64,000 nucleotides of DNA. Source: an uncultured Candidatus Berkelbacteria bacterium. GTDB taxonomy: Bacteria; Patescibacteriota; UBA1384; UBA12157; JAENIV01. The translations under genes and the position numbers were made by a program. Of this stretch, positions 3,385-64,000 are shown in pieces. Position 1 is the first letter of the stretch; the number at the start of each line of letters is the position of its first letter. The stretch spans positions 862,131-926,130 of the forward strand of contig OY969116.1 of the NCBI GenBank assembly GCA_963698075.1, read 5' to 3'. The notes beneath the pieces were generated by a model that saw only the letters and a program-made list of their open reading frames with translations, ran no database searches and was not told the origin of the DNA.

Positions 3385-4224
3385 TTGTTCCCATTTATTG
3401 CCACTGTCACGCAGGCCGCCGGCATCATTGTTGATAAAATAATTTTGACTCGCCGGAGGATGGAGCTTCACGTTTACATCCCGGTTCTTTTTTTATTTCT
3501 GTTTTTACTCACTGGCATTTTGATGCCGTTTTTTGGCAACATTAGTTTAGACATTTTCCGGCCTTACTATTTAATAATCTTCTTGGCCATGATAATCTGC
3601 GCCTTGATTTGGAACGTTTTTTACTACAAAGGTGCCCAGGCGGAAAAAGTTCATGAATTTGAACTCATCATTATGTTCCAGCCATTGCTAACGATTCTTT
3701 TGGCGGCGATATTGATTGAAAAAAATACCAATATTCACCTCCTCATCGCCTCGGTCCTGGCATCCTTGGCGCTGATTTTTTCTCATCTTAAAAGAAATCA
3801 CTTTGAAATTTCCGCCGCCGGCAAGGGTCTCATTTTGGCGGTCGTTTTTATATCTGTGGAGATCATTTTACAAAAGATAATGCTTGAAGTTTTATCGCCA
3901 GTGGCTTTGTATTTTATCCGCACCGGGATTATTTTTCTCTTTTTCATGTTTTTTTATCGGCCGCATATTAGACAAGTAGCCAATACCAATGCCTTGCTGA
4001 TTTTGACGACTTCGGCTTTGGGCGTTGCTCAGATGGTAACCAAATTTTACGGCTTTGAGGTTTACGGGGTGATTTACACTTCTTTAATTTTGATTTTATC
4101 GCCAATTTTGGTCTATATTATCTCGACGATCGCCTTACACGAGCACGTCAAAGCAAGAACAATAATCTCTGGCTTAGTGATTTTAGGTTGTATCATTTAC
4201 GCGACGGTTTTTAATTTAAGATAG
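3385..4224 (+). CDS. Polytopic membrane protein, possibly a DMT/EamA-like transporter
   Basis: About 8-10 hydrophobic helices. TTG start, 5 nt after an AAGGAGG RBS. Confidence 0.45.
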   Translation: MFPFIATVTQAAGIIVDKIILTRRRMELHVYIPVLFLFLFLLTGILMPFFGNISLDIFRPYYLIIFLAMIICALIWNVFYYKGAQAEKVHEFELIIMFQPLLTILLAAILIEKNTNIHLLIASVLASLALIFSHLKRNHFEISAAGKGLILAVVFISVEIILQKIMLEVLSPVALYFIRTGIIFLFFMFFYRPHIRQVANTNALLILTTSALGVAQMVTKFYGFEVYGVIYTSLILILSPILVYIISTIALHEHVKARTIISGLVILGCIIYATVFNLR

Positions 4225-4306: not shown

Positions 4307-5632
4307 TTAGTGCGAAGGCCACTTCTCGCGGAATGGATCATCCGACTCCCGCGAGTAGAAGATGGCGATCAAGTGGCGCTGCCAGCCCATGAAGCCATCG
4401 GGCCAGAGGCGGACGTCCAGCCAATCCCCGGGCGGGACACGCATCGGCGGGTCAGCCCAGGGGTTTTCCCATACCCACATCTGCCAGGCATCGTGGATGT
4501 CAGTGCCAACGTTGTCCTTGCTCTGGCCGTTGAGTTCCCAGGAAGGCAGAGCCACCTTGAACTCCCGGGTCGGCAGGAAGGCTGGGGCGCGACTGCCATA
4601 GAAGCCCTCGCGGACCGTCAGGACAACCTCAGCTTTCGGATCGCGGGGAGACCTCTCGGCTTTGAAGACTTGGTATTCTCCTTGCCGAAGGTCCCAGGCC
4701 GAGTGAACGTAGTTCGGGCTGAATTTGGCCATGCCAGTGGTCAAGAGCCAAGCCGTCACCACCAGGCCGACTGCGAGATAGAAGCCGAAGGTCAGTCTCG
4801 CTATTTCCGGCTCGTTGTCCCAACCGCGCCGCAAGGGACCCTCGTGACTGACGCGAGCCAGCTCATAGCTCTTGATAAAGAGCGCCGAGCAGGCAAAGAC
4901 GAGCCAGTCGCGAGAGAGCAGAGAGTAGACCAGGGGCAGGGCCCAGTAGCGCTGTTCCATCAGTTCATAGAGGTGGCCGTGCCACTTAGGGTCGAGCTTC
5001 TTCTCCAAGATGTCTTCCGCCAGTCCGAGGACCAGGAGGACGACCAGAAAGGCGCCCGCCACGTTGAGCTCCAGGTTGATGGTCAGGAATGTCGGATTGG
5101 AGACGAAACTCTCGTGAAAGAACCTCGTCCCCACGAAGCTTCGGACCGCGAAGATGATCGGATCGGCCAAGAGAACCGCCAAAAGCATTACTGTCGTGGC
5201 CAAACCATGATTGGCGCGATCGATCTTTTCACGGACAAAGCAGACAAGGACCAAGGGAATCAGGAAATTGGCTAGGGGCGGGTGGGCGAGAATCAGGAGT
5301 GACCCCGCCAAACCCCAACCAATACCCAGGACCTTATCCGCTCCTCGAAACCAGACCAGACCGTGGTCGACGAGCAGGTCAGCCACCTTCATCTGGATAC
5401 CAAAGAAGATGGCCAGGGCTCCGACAAGGAGCTCTGTTGGGAGATACACCCCGGCGGCAACGATAGCGATGAGGCTAACCGTACCAGCCAGGGACACCAG
5501 GGCGGCAATATAGGTCAGACGACTGCGGGCCCAGGTGACGATTACAGGGACCCCGAGAACTCGGGGCATAGTCAGGCTTCTGACTGTCACAGCGTGCCTC
5601 CATATAGAGTCAAGGTTCAAATCGTCCCACAT
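4307..5632 (-). CDS. GC-rich (about 58%) polytopic membrane protein with a roughly 150-aa soluble C-terminal domain. Family not recognised.
   Basis: 441-aa ORF with coherent transmembrane-helix periodicity. A near-consensus promoter lies on the minus strand just upstream. Composition is foreign to the surrounding genome. Confidence 0.6.
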   Translation of the reverse strand: MWDDLNLDSIWRHAVTVRSLTMPRVLGVPVIVTWARSRLTYIAALVSLAGTVSLIAIVAAGVYLPTELLVGALAIFFGIQMKVADLLVDHGLVWFRGADKVLGIGWGLAGSLLILAHPPLANFLIPLVLVCFVREKIDRANHGLATTVMLLAVLLADPIIFAVRSFVGTRFFHESFVSNPTFLTINLELNVAGAFLVVLLVLGLAEDILEKKLDPKWHGHLYELMEQRYWALPLVYSLLSRDWLVFACSALFIKSYELARVSHEGPLRRGWDNEPEIARLTFGFYLAVGLVVTAWLLTTGMAKFSPNYVHSAWDLRQGEYQVFKAERSPRDPKAEVVLTVREGFYGSRAPAFLPTREFKVALPSWELNGQSKDNVGTDIHDAWQMWVWENPWADPPMRVPPGDWLDVRLWPDGFMGWQRHLIAIFYSRESDDPFREKWPSH

Positions 5633-6768: not shown

Positions 6769-7413
6769 ATGATGAAGGTGCTTAGAGGCTCCTGCCTGGT
6801 TGCGAGTGGTGTGAAGGAGAAGGACGTATCCTCCTTCCTTCAGGAATGGGACCGGATAGGAGCGGAGCTGATTTCGGTAGAGAGGATCGGTATCAAGAAT
6901 CCTCGCTATCGAGTTCTCGCCTTCCTGCCCAATGGTCCGAATCATTCCTTTGCTTTGACCCACAGGTCTAAAGGCATTCACAATCTGGGTCAGGGCAAAC
7001 TGGTACGGAGCGAGACCGGAGCTGTCCGATTTGTGCCGGAGCGTTACCCCTACCCGGATGCCCAAGAAGTGGGTCGAGGTAGTAGCCGCGTAACCATGTA
7101 CACGGACCGGGACGGAAGGGTACACTTCAGCTTTCTGATACCCGGAACCCACTACCGGTGGCTGCACTGGATCGTTGATCCTCGCCGGATCGGTCCAAGG
7201 CAATTGCCATCAGGCTTTTTCCAATGGGACTTGGGTCTGCCCCAGCGCCGCCTGAGTTTACTAGCAAGTTTCGCGCTGGCGAAAGACACTGGGCGATGCC
7301 TGACACTCCACATGCAAGACCAGTACGGCAAGTTTCACGAACTTCCGGTCGAGAAGCGCGTGGCCAAGGTTCTTGGCCTTCGCGACTGTAACCCTCGAGA
7401 CGAGAGGAGGTGA
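6769..7413 (+). CDS. Hypothetical protein (214 aa) of the GC-rich island
   Basis: ATG preceded by GAGGAGGTGAGAGAG. Same frame as track ORF 6532..7413, but the region upstream of 6769 looks non-protein-like. Confidence 0.5.
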   Translation: MMKVLRGSCLVASGVKEKDVSSFLQEWDRIGAELISVERIGIKNPRYRVLAFLPNGPNHSFALTHRSKGIHNLGQGKLVRSETGAVRFVPERYPYPDAQEVGRGSSRVTMYTDRDGRVHFSFLIPGTHYRWLHWIVDPRRIGPRQLPSGFFQWDLGLPQRRLSLLASFALAKDTGRCLTLHMQDQYGKFHELPVEKRVAKVLGLRDCNPRDERR

Positions 7414-10649: not shown

Positions 10650-11517
10650 AAGACTAAATAGAAAAAATTTTCACATAATCAGAAAAGTTCATTATGACCG
10701 GCGAGAGCGATATATTTGTCTAATTCTCAAACGAAATAATCAGAAGTTTTTTTACAAAGAACTAAATAATGATCGGCCGGATAAATTTAAAGAGCAGATT
10801 GATTTTCAAAAAAGAGTAGAAGAAAGCCAAACGGAAATCATTTTACCAAAATTAATAGATTATAAGCTTGGTGCTGAAAAAAGTTGGGCGCTTTGGGAAT
10901 ATTTACCCGGAAAACATTTAGCTGATTGGAAACCTAAAAAGATAAGACAACTGGCCAATTGGCTGGAACCGATTGTTGAGGTTTTAATTCAAATGTTAAA
11001 AATCAAACCCTTGGAGGGAAATTATCATATCTCTGAAATTATGCTCGAGAGAGCCGAAGGGTGGTCAAAAGAACCGGTCCTGCAAGGTTTTTATTCCGAA
11101 TCATTTAAAAATAAAATTATCTTCCTGATTAACAAAAACCATTCCAAACTAATCAATGGTTTTAATCATTCGGATTTTGTTCCTTGGCACATGCACGAAC
11201 TAAAATTTCCCAAATTTTACCTTGTGGATTATGAGAATTGTAAAGGAAAACCTTTGTATTATGATTTAGCCCATTTTTATCACCGGCTCTATACGAAACT
11301 TGGAGAGCCAAAAATTGCTGATAAATTTCTGGAAATCTTTTTTAAAAGAGCAAAATTACCGCCTGATTTTGAAGCGATATTTTCGACAATTTTAGGCCAC
11401 CGAATTATGGCGGGATTTTTTGACTGCCTTGTTAATAAAGATGGAACTGATATTAAATTACATCAAAAACTATTGGATAATTATCTTAAGACTACAAAAA
11501 ATAGAAAGGGAAAATGA
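10642..11517 (+). CDS. Protein-kinase-like fold phosphotransferase (aminoglycoside/choline kinase family)
   Basis: Brenner-like motif HSDFVPWHM ... LVDYEN. Confidence 0.5.
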   Translation: MVKRLNRKNFHIIRKVHYDRRERYICLILKRNNQKFFYKELNNDRPDKFKEQIDFQKRVEESQTEIILPKLIDYKLGAEKSWALWEYLPGKHLADWKPKKIRQLANWLEPIVEVLIQMLKIKPLEGNYHISEIMLERAEGWSKEPVLQGFYSESFKNKIIFLINKNHSKLINGFNHSDFVPWHMHELKFPKFYLVDYENCKGKPLYYDLAHFYHRLYTKLGEPKIADKFLEIFFKRAKLPPDFEAIFSTILGHRIMAGFFDCLVNKDGTDIKLHQKLLDNYLKTTKNRKGK

Positions 11518-11693
11518 AGAAATCATTTCATCATGGACCTTCAAGTGCGGTGTACGGGCTCGGATTTATCGGCGCGGCAATTTGGTTTATCAGCCAAGCG
11601 CACGGTTTTTGGCCGATCGTTTTAGCAATTTTGAAAGCCATCGTCTGGCCAGCATTTTTGGTCTACCAGGCCTTCCAATTTTTGGCAAAATAG
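11514..11693 (+). CDS. 59-aa small membrane protein (MKKSFHHGPSSAVYGLGFIGAAIWFISQAHGFWPIVLAILKAIVWPAFLVYQAFQFLAK)
   Basis: ATGA overlap with the upstream gene. Two predicted transmembrane helices. Below the ORF-track cut-off. The 117-aa track ORF in another frame is not protein-like. Confidence 0.45.
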   Translation: MKKSFHHGPSSAVYGLGFIGAAIWFISQAHGFWPIVLAILKAIVWPAFLVYQAFQFLAK

Positions 11694-11696
11694 CAT

Positions 11697-11730
11697 CAGC
11701 CGATTTGACCCCCGGCGATTTGGGGGGGGG
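11697..11730 (+). repeat. Copy 1 of the AGCCGATTTGAC-family motif (cagccgatttgacccccggcgatttggggggggg)
   Basis: Begins 4 nt after a TAG stop. Contains the hairpin CCCCC-ggcgattt-GGGGG. Confidence 0.6.
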
Positions 11731-11786
11731 CGTGGTCTGCCGGCGGCAATTGGCCCAGAATTTGGTTTCCTAAGCATTAAACAAAC

Positions 11787-11809
11787 GCCACCTGCGATAT
11801 GCGGGTGGC
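11787..11809 (-). terminator. Terminator for the minus-strand zinc-ribbon gene
   Basis: GCCACCTGC-gatat-GCGGGTGGC. Confidence 0.5.
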
Positions 11810-11834
11810 AAGACGAAATGAAAAGTTGGATCTT

Positions 11835-12227
11835 CTACAGGCTATGGGTGTGGGTTCTGACCGTGAAGTAATGGCAACGCGGACATTTGTGGTGGGTGAA
11901 ATGCCGGCCATAACCAGGTTCCTCAGCCACTTGTTCCATAGGAATAAGACATTTGGGACATAACGCAGCATTCGAATGATCTTCCAGAATGCCACACTCC
12001 AAACATCTAACCTGGAACCGGTGCGGACCCGACGGTACAAACAGAGGAGCGGTGATGAGCTTTTTTTCCTCATCAGACCATACCAACCAACCCAAGAATT
12101 CCCACCGATGTTCACAGACCATCGTCTCCTCAGCAACAGTCATCCAGGGTTCTCCCTTTTTCTTGTGGATATCAGTCCAATTAAATATTACTCCAAATCC
12201 AGATAAAATCAACTCAAAAGAGGCCAA
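11835..12227 (-). CDS. Small zinc-ribbon protein, GC-rich (three CxxC pairs: CLECG...CPKC...CPRC)
   Basis: 130-aa ORF with a TTG start; the alternative internal ATG gives 11835..12143. Cys spacing is typical of zinc ribbons. GC is about 50% against a 38% background. Confidence 0.45.
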   Translation of the reverse strand: MASFELILSGFGVIFNWTDIHKKKGEPWMTVAEETMVCEHRWEFLGWLVWSDEEKKLITAPLFVPSGPHRFQVRCLECGILEDHSNAALCPKCLIPMEQVAEEPGYGRHFTHHKCPRCHYFTVRTHTHSL

Positions 12228-19954: not shown

Positions 19955-19978
19955 AACACCTCAACGGGGTGAGGTGTT
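19955..19978 (+). repeat. 24-nt hairpin element AACACCTCAACGGGGTGAGGTGTT (copy 1)
   Basis: A 9-bp stem that acts as an intergenic terminator. The reverse complement occurs at 23897. Confidence 0.6.
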
Positions 19979-19990
19979 AGGGAGGAGAAA

Positions 19991-23577: not shown

Positions 23578-23898
23578 ATGATTTACATAATTATTGCTCT
23601 TATCGTTGGTTTTGGGCTCGGGTGGTTTTTGAAACCGAGAGAGAGCCGCCCCAGTGAGATACAAAAAAATCTCACGGGGCAAGGATTTATCAGCGAATCG
23701 GTGGAGAAGAAAGAGGAGAATTTAGCAAAAGCAAGAGTATACATTAAAGGCAAGGAAAAGATCACCAATGATGAGCTTCAAAAAGCCCTTGGCGTTTCCG
23801 ACGCAACAATTGTTAGATATTTAGACGAACTCGAAAAAGAAGGTCTCATTAAACAGGTCGGCAAAACCGGCAAGTATACTTACTACGAAGTTCTCTAA
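23578..23898 (+). CDS. Membrane-anchored winged-HTH protein (DeoR/MarR-like HTH at the C-terminus)
   Basis: N-terminal transmembrane helix. ITNDELQKALGVSDATIVRYLDELEKEGLIKQ is a classic wHTH. Confidence 0.55.
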   Translation: MIYIIIALIVGFGLGWFLKPRESRPSEIQKNLTGQGFISESVEKKEENLAKARVYIKGKEKITNDELQKALGVSDATIVRYLDELEKEGLIKQVGKTGKYTYYEVL

Positions 23899-23920
23899 CA
23901 CCTCATCCCGTTGAGGTGTT
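23897..23920 (+). repeat. 24-nt hairpin element copy 2 (AACACCTCATCCCGTTGAGGTGTT), in inverted orientation relative to copy 1
   Basis: Its reverse complement differs from copy 1 by one nucleotide. Confidence 0.6.
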
Positions 23921-40432: not shown

Positions 40433-40573
40433 AATAAGTCTTTTCTAAATGGGTGAATACTTGTCCCTCCGAAATTCGCACCGTCATAACAGAATGTAAT
40501 TCGTTTGACGGTAAAAATGAAGGGGGATCTTTTTTCATACGAAAATATTGTAGCACGAGATTCGTTTCATGTA

Positions 40574-44436: not shown

Positions 44437-45654
44437 ATGCGATATTCTCAAAGCTTCATTAAAACCTTTAAAGAAACACCGCGCGAGGCAGAAAATGCTT
44501 CATCAGCCTTGCTTTTACGTGGCGGTTTCATTGACCAGGAAACAAGCGGCATTTATTCTCTGTTGCCCCTTGGTTGGAAAGTAATCCAAAAAATTTCTCA
44601 AATTATCCGTGAAGAAATGGATGCGATTGGCGGGCAGGAAGTATTTCTACCTTCGATACAACCCAAAGAACTTTGGGAGGAAACAGGACGTTGGAGCACC
44701 ATGGACCCTCCTTTGTTTAAATTTAAAGACCGTCATGAAAAAGATTTTGCCTTGGGCTCAACCCACGAAGAGGTAATTGTTGATCTTGTCCGCGATCGAA
44801 TCTCTTCCTATAAAGAACTGCCGCAGATGCTTTATCAAATCCAAACTAAATTTCGTAACGAACAACGCTCGACGGGCGGACTTTTGAGGGTAAAGGAATT
44901 TTTAATGAAAGATGCTTATAGTTTCCATGCTGACCACGAGGATTTTGAAAAATATTATCAAAAAATGGTTGAAGCATATCGCAAAATTTTCAAAAAAGTT
45001 GGCGTTGAAGTAAGAATGGTCGAAGCGCATTCCGGTTCGATTGGTGGTAAACGTTCAAACGAATTTATGATTCTTTCTGAAACAGGCGAAGACGAAGTTT
45101 TTATTTGCGGCTCCTGCGACTACGCTGTCAACGCCGAACTGACTACTGATATTAAAGCTTGTCCGGCCTGTGCTGGCGCGGTTAAATCGGCCAACGCTAT
45201 CGAGGTAGCCCACATTTTCGATTTGGGCGATCTTTATTCAACTAAAATGAATGGCCTTTTCACTGACAAAGATGGCAAACAAAAATCCTATTTTATGGGA
45301 TGTTATGGCATCGGCATCGGCCGGCTTTTAGCTTCGATTATAGAGGTAAGTCATGATAATAATGGCATTATCTGGCCTGAGCAAGTTGCCCCTTATCAAG
45401 TTTATTTGGCTGATTTAACAAACAGGAAGGCAAATAAAGTTTACGACGAACTGACGAAGTCAGGAATCGAGGTTTTGTATGATGATCGTCCGGAGTCTGC
45501 CGGCGTTAAATTTTCCGACGCCGATTTGTTGGGGTTACCTTATCGAGCCGTCGTCTCTGAAAAAACTGGCGACAAAATTGAGGTAAAAAAACGCGATAGT
45601 AAAAAGTCAAGTCTGATAACGCTTGACAAGTTTATTGAACAATTGCGACAATAA
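44437..45654 (+). CDS. proS: Prolyl-tRNA synthetase (short class II form without the editing insertion)
   Basis: Class II motifs, FRNEQRSTGGLLRVKEF, and a C-terminal anticodon-binding domain. Confidence 0.9.
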   Translation: MRYSQSFIKTFKETPREAENASSALLLRGGFIDQETSGIYSLLPLGWKVIQKISQIIREEMDAIGGQEVFLPSIQPKELWEETGRWSTMDPPLFKFKDRHEKDFALGSTHEEVIVDLVRDRISSYKELPQMLYQIQTKFRNEQRSTGGLLRVKEFLMKDAYSFHADHEDFEKYYQKMVEAYRKIFKKVGVEVRMVEAHSGSIGGKRSNEFMILSETGEDEVFICGSCDYAVNAELTTDIKACPACAGAVKSANAIEVAHIFDLGDLYSTKMNGLFTDKDGKQKSYFMGCYGIGIGRLLASIIEVSHDNNGIIWPEQVAPYQVYLADLTNRKANKVYDELTKSGIEVLYDDRPESAGVKFSDADLLGLPYRAVVSEKTGDKIEVKKRDSKKSSLITLDKFIEQLRQ

Positions 45655-45685
45655 TAAAGACAAAAATAAATAGTAAGGAGGTTTG

Positions 45686-45919
45686 ATGGACGAAGACAAA
45701 ACGACCACGCCAGCAGCTGCAGGTGATTCTGGCTCTGATGATACTGGCGCCATGCCAGTAGAAGAGGAGGAAGAGAAACCAACGCCTGCCGGAGAAGGAG
45801 AAGTCGCTGAACCAGCGATAGGTGAACCAGCTGCAGGCGAAGAAGAAAAGAGTGAAGTACCGGCCGCGCCGGCTGGCGATTTGGGCGAAGAGGCCAAAGG
45901 CGAAAAGCCGGAAGAGTAA
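45686..45919 (+). CDS. Small acidic, Pro/Ala/Glu-rich disordered protein (77 aa)
   Basis: AAGGAGG RBS. A strong terminator follows (AAAAACCCCT-gcgattatg-AGGGGTTTTTG, 45938-45970). Confidence 0.4.
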   Translation: MDEDKTTTPAAAGDSGSDDTGAMPVEEEEEKPTPAGEGEVAEPAIGEPAAGEEEKSEVPAAPAGDLGEEAKGEKPEE

Positions 45920-46009
45920 TTTTCAAAATTTTATACAAAAACCCCTGCGATTATGAGGGGTTTTTGTTATTGACAGAAGAACCATTTAATGATACATTTT
46001 TTTCTGTAC

Positions 46010-46530
46010 GTTAAGTTTACCCACCGTAGTCCCGCCAAGCGGGACGAAGGTGGGAATTAGAGATGAGGAAAGGGGGCAGCCATGGGTAGGTGGATAGCGA
46101 TTCTGCTGGCCATACTGGCCTTGATACTGGCCAGTGGGGTTCGATAATGATCGGGTAGCTGCGTCTGGGTGCGAGGTGCCGAGGAAGCACGATGCGTCGT
46201 GTGAGGCGAAGTCCCCGTCCTGGATAATGATACTCGAAAAAGGGTATCAGCCTCGCACCCTCGAGCTGCCAGGTTAAAAACCGGGGCTCGGGCCGAGCCC
46301 ACAAACCACAAGACACGGTGAGTTAAGATGGCATCCCGAAAGGGATAGCTACGACAAGCCGACTCCAACGTGGTTTACCACCAAAGAGGATACAAAGGTT
46401 TCGTTTCTGCTGGGGATGTTTCCCCAGTTGGTAACGGTTCCTTCCCCTGCCTGGTAGCTCTTTCGAGCCCGCGACGAAGCGCGGTCGCGCTTCGTCGCCT
46501 CATCCCTGATTCTTAAGATTTTAATGGCTC
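46010..46530. ncRNA. Candidate structured RNA of unknown class (GC about 57%, non-coding)
   Basis: No frame on either strand gives a protein-like translation. A closing helix GATGAGG/CCTCATC spans about 440 nt. Perfect hairpins include GCGACGAAGCGCG-gtc-CGCGCTTCGTCGC, ATCCC-GAAA-GGGAT, CTGGGGA-tgtt-TCCCCAG and GGGCTCG-ggc-CGAGCCC. There is a long-range pairing GGGTGCGAGG/CCTCGCACCC. I could not match RNase P or tmRNA consensus motifs. Confidence 0.35.
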
Positions 46531-46592
46531 ACCTCTTGAGCCGTTAGATTTAAGATAGACTTTGAACTAAAAGTGTGGTAAACTATCGCCAT

Positions 46593-48551
46593 ATGGAGTT
46601 TAAGATATCCTCAAAATTCAAACCTGCCGGTGATCAGCCGCAGGCGATTGACGAATTGGTGGCAGGTCTTAAGAAAGGCAATAAACATCAGACTCTTTTG
46701 GGTGTCACCGGTTCCGGCAAGACTTTTACGATGGCTAATGTAATTGAAAAAGTCCAGCGGCCAACTTTAGTAATTGCCCACAATAAAACGCTCGCAGCCC
46801 AATTGGCGGCGGAATTTCGCGCCTTTTTCCCCAACAGCGCGGTCGAATATTTTGTCTCCTACTATGATTATTATCAGCCCGAGGCCTATTTACCGACGAC
46901 TGATATCTACATTGAAAAAGAAGTTGAAATCAATGAAGAAATTGATCGTCTGCGGCATGCCGCCACCCAGGCATTACTCGCGCGGCGGGATGTAATTATT
47001 GTCGCCTCGGTCTCTTGTATCTATGGCTTAGGCAGCCCCGAGTTGTATCGCGAGAGCTTTTTAAGTTTAAAGATCGGTCAGCGAATATCACGCGACGAAA
47101 TTATCCATAAACTGATTGATTTATACTTTTCACGTTCCGAGATTCTCGGCCGGGGTAAGTTTCGCGTTCACGGCGAAATCATTGATATTGTGCCAGCCGA
47201 TCAGGAAGTCGTTATTCGTTTAGAAATACATTCCAATATTCTGCAGAATGTCGGAATATTTGATATGGTGTCGATGAGAAAATTGTTAGCGGAAAAAGAA
47301 ATTACACTTTATCCGGCCAAGCATTTTGTAGTTGATGAGCCGACGATGGCGCAAGCGATTGGCGAAATCGAGAAAGAATTGGAAGAAAGATTAAAATATT
47401 TTGAAAAAGAAGGCAAAATTATTGAAGCCGAACGTTTGCGTCGCCGCACCCGTTATGATTTAGAACTTTTGCGCGAAATTGGTTATTGTCCGGGAATCGA
47501 GAATTATTCGCGATACTTAACTGGCCGCCGCGAAGGCCAGGCGCCTTATACCCTCATCGATTATTTTCCCGAAGGCTATTTATTGATCATTGATGAATCA
47601 CACGTGACCGTGCCTCAACTTAATGGGATGTATGAAGGTGATAAATCGCGTAAAGATTCTTTGGTTGAACATGGGTTTCGTTTGCCGAGCGCTCGCGACA
47701 ATCGGCCGTTAAAATTTCCGGAATTTTTGGGCAAAATTAATCAAGTTATTTATACTTCAGCCACTCCGGCCAAATTTGAGCGGGAAAAATCAAACCAAAT
47801 CGTCGAACAAATTATTCGCCCAACCGGCTTAGTTGATCCGGAAGTTGAAGTTCGGCCAATTATTGGTCAAGTTGATGATTTAGTCAAAGAAATTCAAGAA
47901 AGAACTCGCCACGGCGAGCGGGTTTTGGTGACGACCTTGACCAAGCGTATGGCAGAAGATTTATCAGAACATCTCAAAGAAGCTGGCATCCGTGCCGAAT
48001 ATTTACATAGTGAAGTTCAAACTTTGGATCGGGTTGGGATTTTGGATAATCTTCGCAAAGGCGAATTTGATGTTTTAGTTGGCGTTAACTTATTGCGAGA
48101 GGGATTGGATTTGCCAGAAGTATCATTGGTGGCGATTTTAGATGCCGACAAAGAAGGATTTTTGCGAAGTGATGTTTCTTTGATCCAAACCATCGGTCGG
48201 GCGGCACGTAATGTCCGCGGTAAAGTGATTTTGTATGCCGATAACATCACCGGCTCAATGAAGAGAGCGATTTCGGAAACCATCCGCCGCCGCCAGATGC
48301 AAATTGAGTTTAATAAAAAACATCATATTACTCCCAAGACTATCCAAAAAGCGATTCAAACGATTATTGATCACGAACTCAAACCAGAAGTGACGCGCGA
48401 GTATATTAACCTCGAAAATTTAGAAGATGTCCCAGTTGTCATTAAAGCCAAAACTGAAGAAATGAAAAAAGCCGCTAAGGAATTGCGCTTTGAAGAAGCG
48501 GCTATTTTAAGAGATGAGATTGTTCAGTTAAAGAGATTAAGAATTAGATAG
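46593..48551 (+). CDS. uvrB: Excinuclease ABC subunit B
   Basis: Walker A GVTGSGKT and the helicase motifs. A TG-extended -10 (tgGTAAACT) lies 9 nt upstream of the ATG, suggesting a leaderless or short-leader mRNA. Confidence 0.95.
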   Translation: MEFKISSKFKPAGDQPQAIDELVAGLKKGNKHQTLLGVTGSGKTFTMANVIEKVQRPTLVIAHNKTLAAQLAAEFRAFFPNSAVEYFVSYYDYYQPEAYLPTTDIYIEKEVEINEEIDRLRHAATQALLARRDVIIVASVSCIYGLGSPELYRESFLSLKIGQRISRDEIIHKLIDLYFSRSEILGRGKFRVHGEIIDIVPADQEVVIRLEIHSNILQNVGIFDMVSMRKLLAEKEITLYPAKHFVVDEPTMAQAIGEIEKELEERLKYFEKEGKIIEAERLRRRTRYDLELLREIGYCPGIENYSRYLTGRREGQAPYTLIDYFPEGYLLIIDESHVTVPQLNGMYEGDKSRKDSLVEHGFRLPSARDNRPLKFPEFLGKINQVIYTSATPAKFEREKSNQIVEQIIRPTGLVDPEVEVRPIIGQVDDLVKEIQERTRHGERVLVTTLTKRMAEDLSEHLKEAGIRAEYLHSEVQTLDRVGILDNLRKGEFDVLVGVNLLREGLDLPEVSLVAILDADKEGFLRSDVSLIQTIGRAARNVRGKVILYADNITGSMKRAISETIRRRQMQIEFNKKHHITPKTIQKAIQTIIDHELKPEVTREYINLENLEDVPVVIKAKTEEMKKAAKELRFEEAAILRDEIVQLKRLRIR

Positions 48552-48648: not shown

Positions 48649-48718
48649 GACCCCAGCATAACTCCTTCCTGACTTATTGAACTACGTTCAATCACGCAGG
48701 AGCGTCGTATGCGGGGCA
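48649..48718 (+). repeat. Structured repeat R, copy 1 (about 70 nt, three nested helices, central palindrome TTGAAC-TAC-GTTCAA)
   Basis: Outer helix CCCCAGCATA/TATGCGGGG. Middle helix CTCCTTCCTG/CAGGAGCG. Inner hairpin perfect. Confidence 0.6.
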
Positions 48719-48767: not shown

Positions 48768-48836
48768 ACCCCAGCACAAAAGCTTACTGGTTTACAGAAC
48801 TACGTTCTGTCACGCCGTGCGCTTTATGCGGGGCAA
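48768..48836 (+). repeat. Structured repeat R, copy 2 (diverged; inner hairpin ACAGAAC-TAC-GTTCTGT), 13 nt upstream of the uvrA ATG
   Basis: Same three-helix layout as copy 1, with compensatory base changes in the stems. Confidence 0.6.
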
Positions 48837-63945: not shown

Positions 63946-64000
63946 AACCCCGTACAATTCCTTCCTGACTTATTGAATTACATTCAATCACGCAGGAGCG
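63946..64000 (+). repeat. Structured repeat R, copy 3 (partial; the window ends inside it), directly after clpP
   Basis: Near-identical to copy 1 except for compensatory changes in the inner hairpin (TTGAAT-TAC-ATTCAA). Confidence 0.55.

Follow-up and report, generated by a model that had tools for sequence, protein, structure and literature searches.

A candidate modular structured RNA gene inserted upstream of uvrB in Berkelbacteria-like bacteria

Long end-to-end helices (19–22 bp, about two turns) around variable structured RNA, patchy among relatives, are established features of rRNA processing stalks and intervening sequences, which are RNase III substrates. Type I toxin mRNAs (hok, tisB, dinQ, aapA1, ibs) combine a small hydrophobic ORF with a strongly folded transcript of 200–500 nt and end pairing beside the ribosome-binding region, and are also patchy. 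The large RNAs OLE, GOLLD, ROOL and raiA form GC-rich islands in AT-rich genomes; they are 400–600 nt long, with many helices, no coding role and their own transcription unit, and GOLLD and ROOL often lie near tRNA genes. REP/BIME and MITE palindromes are intergenic GC-rich hairpins with terminal inverted repeats. To our knowledge, very little is known about the non-coding RNA of candidate-phyla-radiation bacteria, whose tiny genomes leave scant room for ballast.

Here we describe an element upstream of uvrB in an uncultured Candidatus Berkelbacteria bacterium that is like all four groups in these respects, enclosing tRNAs in one species and having an IS200-like transposase gene nearby in two relatives. 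It differs from rRNA stalks in having no rRNA gene in or beside it, its own promoter and near-invariant arms, cleavage being putative; from type I toxin mRNAs in that one orthologue has no ORF, the substitutions fit a constraint on RNA and no antisense partner was found; from OLE, GOLLD, ROOL and raiA in matching no Rfam model at E ≤ 10, in its very narrow distribution and in its unstable domain content; and from REP/BIME and MITE palindromes in being single copy, without a target duplication, with a promoter included and with strand-specific wobble pairs and compensatory changes. Judged from sequence, it is a putative new RNA family without described relatives, of a known general kind: orphan RNAs that are large and structured and lie in GC-rich islands between genes.

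The element lies within the window, by which we mean the whole 64-kb stretch of DNA analysed. The best matches of its UvrB are from candidate-phyla-radiation bacteria, the closest named one being a Berkelbacteria MAG (76% identity); a UvrB with 100% identity is encoded on a 929-kb contig. Relatives share the gene order M50 peptidase, proS, small acidic ORF, uvrB, uvrA. A sequence-only reading of this stretch had placed the segment between proS and uvrB; it does lie upstream of uvrB, but proS is one gene further away, separated from it by a 78-aa acidic ORF (45683–45919) and its terminator (45938–45966). The low-complexity acidic ORF, 39–98 aa long in relatives, matches no family, and its position between proS and uvrB is conserved across the clade. 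The proS product (44437–45654), well over the TIGR00409 cut-off in a profile search, is only 405 aa long and matches bacterial profiles of 559–568 aa in two separate stretches, so the editing insertion is apparently missing.

Orthologous inserts occupy the same spot in four Berkelbacteria-like species: the window (45970 to about 46545, plus strand), L081 (5668–5912, a short form; the same copy as in L082 and L098), L103 (6939 to about 7650; element identical in L099) and L104 (3393–3877). The element is absent from this locus, to which the search was confined, in at least 10 related contigs representing seven distinct UvrB lineages. At these empty sites (L001, L083–L086, L087/L088, L089/L090, L091, L105 and L108) uvrB is separated from the acidic ORF by 80–155 nt that contain only a terminator and the extended −10 element of uvrB; in L109, an unrelated aminotransferase gene lies in the gap. 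Since the carriers do not form one clean clade in a UvrB tree, the element must have been gained at least once and lost several times, or else gained repeatedly.

Comparison with the empty sites shows an insert that falls within the interval from the upstream T-tract to the uvrB −10 element, with promoter and terminator included. By sequence, the segment was thus inserted whole, as a predicted plus-strand transcription unit with a near-consensus sigma-70-type promoter, and it forms one complete unit of this kind, which the sequence-only reading did not notice. The promoter (45970–45998, plus strand) consists of TTGACA, a 17-nt spacer and TACATT, with TG ahead of the −10 hexamer, and matches consensus at 10 of 12 positions, from which we infer transcription starting near 46005. 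Homologous promoters (11–12 of 12) precede the 5′ arm of the element in L081, L103 and L104 and are absent from the empty sites. At the other end, L081 and L104 have clear terminator hairpins immediately behind the 3′ arm. The window and L103 have hairpins without a clear T-run there; in the window this is GGCTCA-CCTCT-TGAGCC (46526–46542, plus strand), a possible terminator with a weak T-rich tail that was not called by the terminator scan and belongs to a repeated hairpin family.

Members of this family, (AAC)GGCTCA-nnnn-TGAGCC(GTT), were seen at 46526–46542 of the window, at 3855–3877 of L104 and at 12176–12204 of L081. A second hairpin, AACACCTCA-nnnn-TGAGGTGTT, recurs in the window (19955–19983 and 23892–23920) and is the element's terminator in L081 (5885–5912). 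In L103, tandem GCATTGTT octamers (6976–7003) occupy the 5′ leader between promoter and 5′ arm, where L081 has one full unit and a partial one.

The segment is GC-rich, as had been noted (55.9% GC at 46010–46530), although the background is 43.1% over the 64-kb window and not 38% as first stated. Its plus strand (46005–46560) has a predicted minimum free energy (MFE) of −260.6 kcal/mol, compared with −195.9 ± 6.6 kcal/mol for dinucleotide shuffles (z = −9.8; none of 100 as good), and its minus strand gives z = −6.0 against shuffles. For the RNA of the window and that of L104 alike, the MFE fold has a terminal helix, P1, that closes a multi-way junction, and the L104 variant (z = −7.1) has the same overall architecture as that of the window.

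All four copies carry the 19-bp terminal helix TTAAGAATTAGAGATGAGG / CCTCATCCCTGATTCTTAA(G), a single base differing at its inner end in L104 only. The arms pair over 19 positions that include one U·G pair and one A/C mismatch, both conserved. The 5′ arm is uninterrupted in L081, L103 and L104. In the window it is split into an outer part, TTAAG (46011–46015), which pairs with CTTAA at 46512–46516, and an inner part, AATTAGAGATGAGG (46055–46068), which is identical in all four copies and pairs with CCTCATCCCTGATT at 46498–46511, the U·G pair and the A/C mismatch both lying here; the pairing of GATGAGG (46062–46068) with CCTCATC (46498–46504), proposed in the sequence-only reading, is borne out as part of it. 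The interrupting 39 nt (46016–46054), TTTA followed by the 35-nt hairpin CCCACC-GTA-GTCCCGC-CAA-GCGGGAC-GAA-GGTGGG, are absent from the other three copies. The 3′ arm, CCTCATCCCTGATTCTTAAG (46498–46517), is identical in the window, L081 and L103. Between the 5′ arm and the interior lies a purine-rich joint, AAAGGGGG (46069–46076), in which AAAGG is present in all four copies; it resembles a Shine-Dalgarno sequence, its G-run ending 5 nt before an ATG. The P1 arms are conserved in sequence and do not covary, a point against the reading favoured below; this suggests sequence-specific recognition, a signal at the DNA level being equally possible.

The interior consists of four modules, B to E (plus strand throughout), each with its own closing stem, which are gained, lost or replaced independently across species. 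Module B (46076–46162; window, L081 and L103) is closed by GCAGC/GCTGC and contains a short hairpin over the start codon of a small ORF and a long irregular hairpin; in L104, an unrelated 125-nt hairpin domain takes its place. Module C (46167–46260) has a 10-bp stem, GGGTGCGAGG (46167–46176) with CCTCGCACCC (46251–46260), a further long-range pairing that held up as first read, around a variable interior and a conserved GATAC..GGTATC sub-hairpin. The window, L103 and L104 all have this stem, of which L081 retains the 3′ half only. Module D (46263–46460), which branches and measures about 200 nt, with GAGCTGCCAGG/CCTGGTAGCTC as its closing stem, is missing from L081; it includes the GAAA-loop hairpin ATCCC-GAAA-GGGAT (46333–46346), just as originally described, and shows compensatory changes in three of its helices. 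A covariance model of module D, R1, matched only its two source sequences, the window and L103, among all collected loci. Module E (46471–46498), GCGACGAAGCGC-GGTC-GCGCTTCGTCGC, had been read as a 13-bp stem: the perfect inverted repeat is indeed 13 nt long, but the 4-nt loop leaves only 12 pairs in this GC-rich hairpin, two of them compensatory relative to L103. It is found in the window, L103 and L104 with a different sequence in each, that of L104 being a different hairpin at the same position. In L103, tRNA-Gln(CTG) and tRNA-Ala(TGC) lie within the unit, between modules B and C.

Conservation was gauged against uvrB, whose four-fold degenerate sites are only 42–52% identical among the four genomes, so that neutral sites are near saturation. 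Between copies of the element, the 5′ arm with the joint is 96–100% identical, module B 87–95% and module D 73% by count or 84% by a column measure, giving 73–100% for modules and arms overall. The proS and uvrB stretches that flank the unit are no more similar than mid-uvrB, which makes recent recombinational or horizontal transfer an unlikely source of this similarity.

Base pairing was examined in the same copies. For modules D and E of the window and L103, RNAalifold gave 56 pairs with 100% of cells paired, eight pairs changed on both sides and none broken, a structure derived from the same two sequences on which it was tested, so that the covariation is supportive and not conclusive. When the partners were slid by 1–3 columns as a control, 35–50% of cells paired and 0–2 pairs were changed on both sides. 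Module B forms 26 pairs across three sequences; columns 67/84 run U-A, U·G and C-G, and several of its G·U pairs would become C/A mismatches on the opposite strand. This series and the strand-specific G·U pairs favour a fold of the plus-strand RNA. The covariation as a whole rests on sequence pairs and triplets from four distinct copies, two of them with module D. Within that sample, the comparisons show predicted stems that change by compensatory substitutions and a sequence held far above the neutral level. We infer that the constraint acts on the plus-strand RNA fold and not on a protein.

The sequence-only reading had offered a large structured non-coding RNA of unknown class as one possibility. 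This is supported by the near-consensus plus-strand promoter in all four copies, by the conservation and compensatory changes above, and by the absence of any Rfam match to this copy or its orthologues. No Rfam model matched at gathering score in the whole window; at E ≤ 10, no housekeeping or large RNA family matched 45850–46650 or three copies of the element on both strands, in a comparison that covered the families named in that reading (RNase P, tmRNA, introns, OLE, GOLLD, ROOL, HEARO and 6S). RNase P RNA of types A and B was rejected in this way at both thresholds and so, for three copies at E ≤ 10, were group I and II introns, OLE, GOLLD, ROOL, HEARO, raiA, 6S and SRP RNA. A tmRNA was rejected on negative ARAGORN and Rfam results, ARAGORN finding no tRNA or tmRNA in the window, and because the ends form a plain 19-bp helix and the ORF starts at an ATG of its own and lacks an Ala-rich tail. 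Manual mapping of a cloverleaf onto module B and of a pseudo-tRNA onto module C did not fit.

Searches for homologues beyond the locus gave no match by blastn in phage and plasmid collections or by nhmmer and blastn in 80 uvrB loci from GTDB species; six patterns run against viral contigs (IMG/VR) hit coding regions, by chance only (L106, L107, L110 and L111). Of the six ORFs of at least 21 aa wholly within the element, all except a 22-aa one were translated and fused into a protein query meant to catch miscalled ORFs over homologous elements; it had no database homologue. Searches of the literature on these phyla for structured RNAs or for RNase P RNA returned no papers.

On balance, we think that the segment is probably a functional structured RNA gene without a family, about 510 nt long, single-copy, restricted to a small clade and non-essential. 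The strong promoter would produce a plus-strand RNA whose two ends join in a helix roughly two turns long, fixed in sequence, wobble and mismatch, while the interior would fold as independent domains on a multi-way junction. A stalk that guides maturation or shields the ends is suggested by the fixed sequence of the terminal helix, by domains that are independent of one another and, in L103, by the enclosed tRNAs. Such a stalk would resemble those around rRNAs and rRNA intervening sequences, which RNase III cleaves, and would free or stabilise the RNA domains within it; two tRNAs would have to be excised from the same transcript in L103. By analogy, the helix is probably a maturation or protection stalk, a part of the proposal that we would credit with perhaps half the weight given to the RNA gene itself. 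If the proposal is correct, the element would constitute a new RNA family, its 500-nt gene being under selection and combining a strong promoter with a near-invariant helix and swappable domains; it would provide a natural example of large RNAs assembled from modules, and the tRNA-containing copy in L103 would offer a direct handle on processing of the transcript.

A bolder version, which we put forward tentatively, is that the element represents an undescribed class of large modular RNAs in candidate-phyla-radiation bacteria. The invariant helix and joint would then be a platform, recognised by a dedicated factor or RNase, that carries interchangeable domains and even tRNAs, one domain doubling as the coding region of a membrane peptide.

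The gain and loss of modules, with L081 left without module D and with only one half of stem C, counts against a functional RNA, in which it is unusual, and fits decay. Alternatively, the element may be a mosaic of selfish DNA, in which the gap before uvrB is a hot spot for GC-rich palindromic insertions, whether REP- or MITE-like or akin to rRNA intervening sequences, the 19-bp repeats are the element's ends and the fold is a by-product. We regard this as rather unlikely. Inverted-repeat termini around a variable interior would be expected of such elements, and the locus alternates between presence and absence, with the aminotransferase gene in the L109 gap. The private hairpin in the 5′ arm of the window, the other hairpin inserted at the uvrB start in L081 and L103, and the repetition of the hairpin family behind the 3′ arm, one L081 member of which lies about 90 nt from the IS200-like transposase gene, point the same way. 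However, neither the 64-kb window nor related loci totalling about 1.5 Mb yielded a second copy of any module, where a MITE or REP would be present in many copies. The inverted repeats are present, but the insert reaches beyond them to a homologous promoter and the terminator, and no target-site duplication was found at its boundaries when carrier copies were compared with empty sites. Conservation far above neutral without elevated flanks, compensatory changes and strand-specific G·U pairs also argue against it. Were the element a decaying or selfish insert after all, looking for GC-rich islands would still have detected such elements in these genomes.

The transposase gene itself, which encodes a 222-aa IS200-like Y1 protein, lies between uvrA and uvrC in L081 (in the region 11360–12130) and L104 and has no counterpart at that place in the window; the L081 gene, the one inspected, is flanked on both sides by CATACCAGGTATG..AAATGGTT.

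The earlier statement that the segment has no protein-like frame is roughly true, but it overlooked a small ORF of 21 codons, MGRWIAILLAILALILASGVR plus stop (46082–46147, plus strand), behind the Shine-Dalgarno-like purine-rich run and inside module B. The peptides of the window, L081 (MGRWIAILLAVLVVILAGGVR) and L103 (MGRWIAILLAVPVVILAGGVR) have the same length and resemble a single membrane helix, with MGRW and then GVR on either side of 14 mainly hydrophobic residues. The element might then be a type I toxin-like or dual-function mRNA for a 21-residue hydrophobic membrane peptide, with the fold-back shutting the ribosome-binding site until processing, as in hok, tisB, dinQ and aapA1. The G-stretch that ends 5 nt before the ATG would suit this, as would a P1 5′ arm that stops one base short of the purine-rich run, the retention in the short L081 copy of precisely promoter, arms, ORF and terminator, and the patchy distribution in close relatives. 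Some SOS-linked toxins (tisB, dinQ) adjoin DNA-repair genes, and so does this element.

The substitutions nevertheless make a toxin mRNA unlikely. Every nucleotide of codons 1–10 is identical in the three copies, despite neutral sites that are about 50% diverged and near saturation; beyond codon 10, there are five amino-acid replacements, one synonymous change and a TAA/TAG difference at the stop, and selection on the peptide was rejected on these grounds. The Leu-to-Pro change in L103 is the substitution that restores a C-G Watson–Crick pair of the hairpin, and L104 keeps the arms, the joint and stem C with no equivalent of the ORF, so that the ribosome-binding site and hydrophobic frame expected of a type I toxin occur in three of the four copies. 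Invariant early codons, more replacements than synonymous changes, a pairing-restoring Leu-to-Pro and the lack of an ORF in L104 all point to a constraint on RNA. No minus-strand promoter that could drive an antisense or adjacent antitoxin RNA was found by the promoter scan inside any of the four copies, although such an RNA could be encoded in trans. Two minus-strand ORFs of 99 and 103 aa overlap the element and have no Pfam match. The 21-residue peptide has no homologue or family in our searches. A degenerate pattern of Shine-Dalgarno sequence plus ORF matched 12 metagenome stretches, three of them real (L098, the same contig as L082, and L099 and L103, with identical elements); the others were unrelated N-termini of longer proteins, and no homologous small ORF was found outside this locus. 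Translation of the ORF is unnecessary to explain these observations; most likely the fold gives rise to the frame as a by-product, any function of the frame being secondary.

A structured RNA gene with its own promoter also has to be set against a long cis-regulatory leader of uvrB (and uvrA), whose fold would control read-through from the strong upstream promoter; we consider this quite improbable. The element does lie directly upstream of uvrB on the same strand, and a clear T-run is missing after the 3′ arm in the window and L103. Yet uvrB keeps its own extended −10 in all genomes, whether or not the element is present: in the window it is TGTGGTAAACT (46574–46584, plus strand), at the right edge of the inserted unit and outside the RNA, and at the empty sites a TGnTAAAAT-type element lies directly behind the upstream terminator. 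Good terminators follow the 3′ arm in L081 and L104, with about 170 nt more ahead of uvrB in L104, and most relatives manage without the element; a riboswitch or uvrB leader would be continuous with the regulated mRNA and conserved along with the gene, and these points speak against one. A further hairpin, ATCCGCC..GGCGGAT, has been inserted in L081 (5940–5985) and L103 (7697–7745) ahead of the start codon now used by uvrB, behind what remains of the ancestral start region.

The other possibility raised in the sequence-only reading, a very divergent housekeeping RNA (RNase P RNA, tmRNA, 6S or SRP RNA), is highly improbable: the size suits RNase P RNA or tmRNA and GAGGAAAG (46065–46072) resembles the start of the CR-I motif, being what we take to be its first 8 nt in E. 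coli M1 RNA, but of the P4 helix formed by CR-I (GAGGAAAGUCC) and CR-V (ACAGAA..GGCUUA) only these letters are present, followed by GGGGG, with no complementary 3′ strand found on inspection and no tRNA-like ends to be drawn, there is no covariance-model or ARAGORN hit, and the element is missing from this locus in close relatives, cut down by half in L081 and re-modelled in L104, which has only the terminal helix, joint and one stem in common; an essential RNase P gene would be expected intact in all close relatives.

Two further motifs were noticed in the window. The palindrome GAAYTACRTTC occurs five times (4705–4715, 40492–40502, 48679–48689, 48797–48807 and 63975–63985) against an expectation of 0.1. 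A 53-nt repeat family (48652–48704, 48770–48822 and 63948–64000) accounts for three of the sites, two of its copies being found between uvrB and uvrA, and the motif also occurs upstream of uvrA in L001 (7365–7377); it may serve a repair regulon as its operator, or be a small hairpin RNA motif. A 23–27-nt motif, AGCCGATTTGACA(C/G)C(C/G)GG, which includes a TTGACA hexamer, recurs at 11698, 18520, 20223, 20895 and 21505 and may be a shared promoter with an upstream element.
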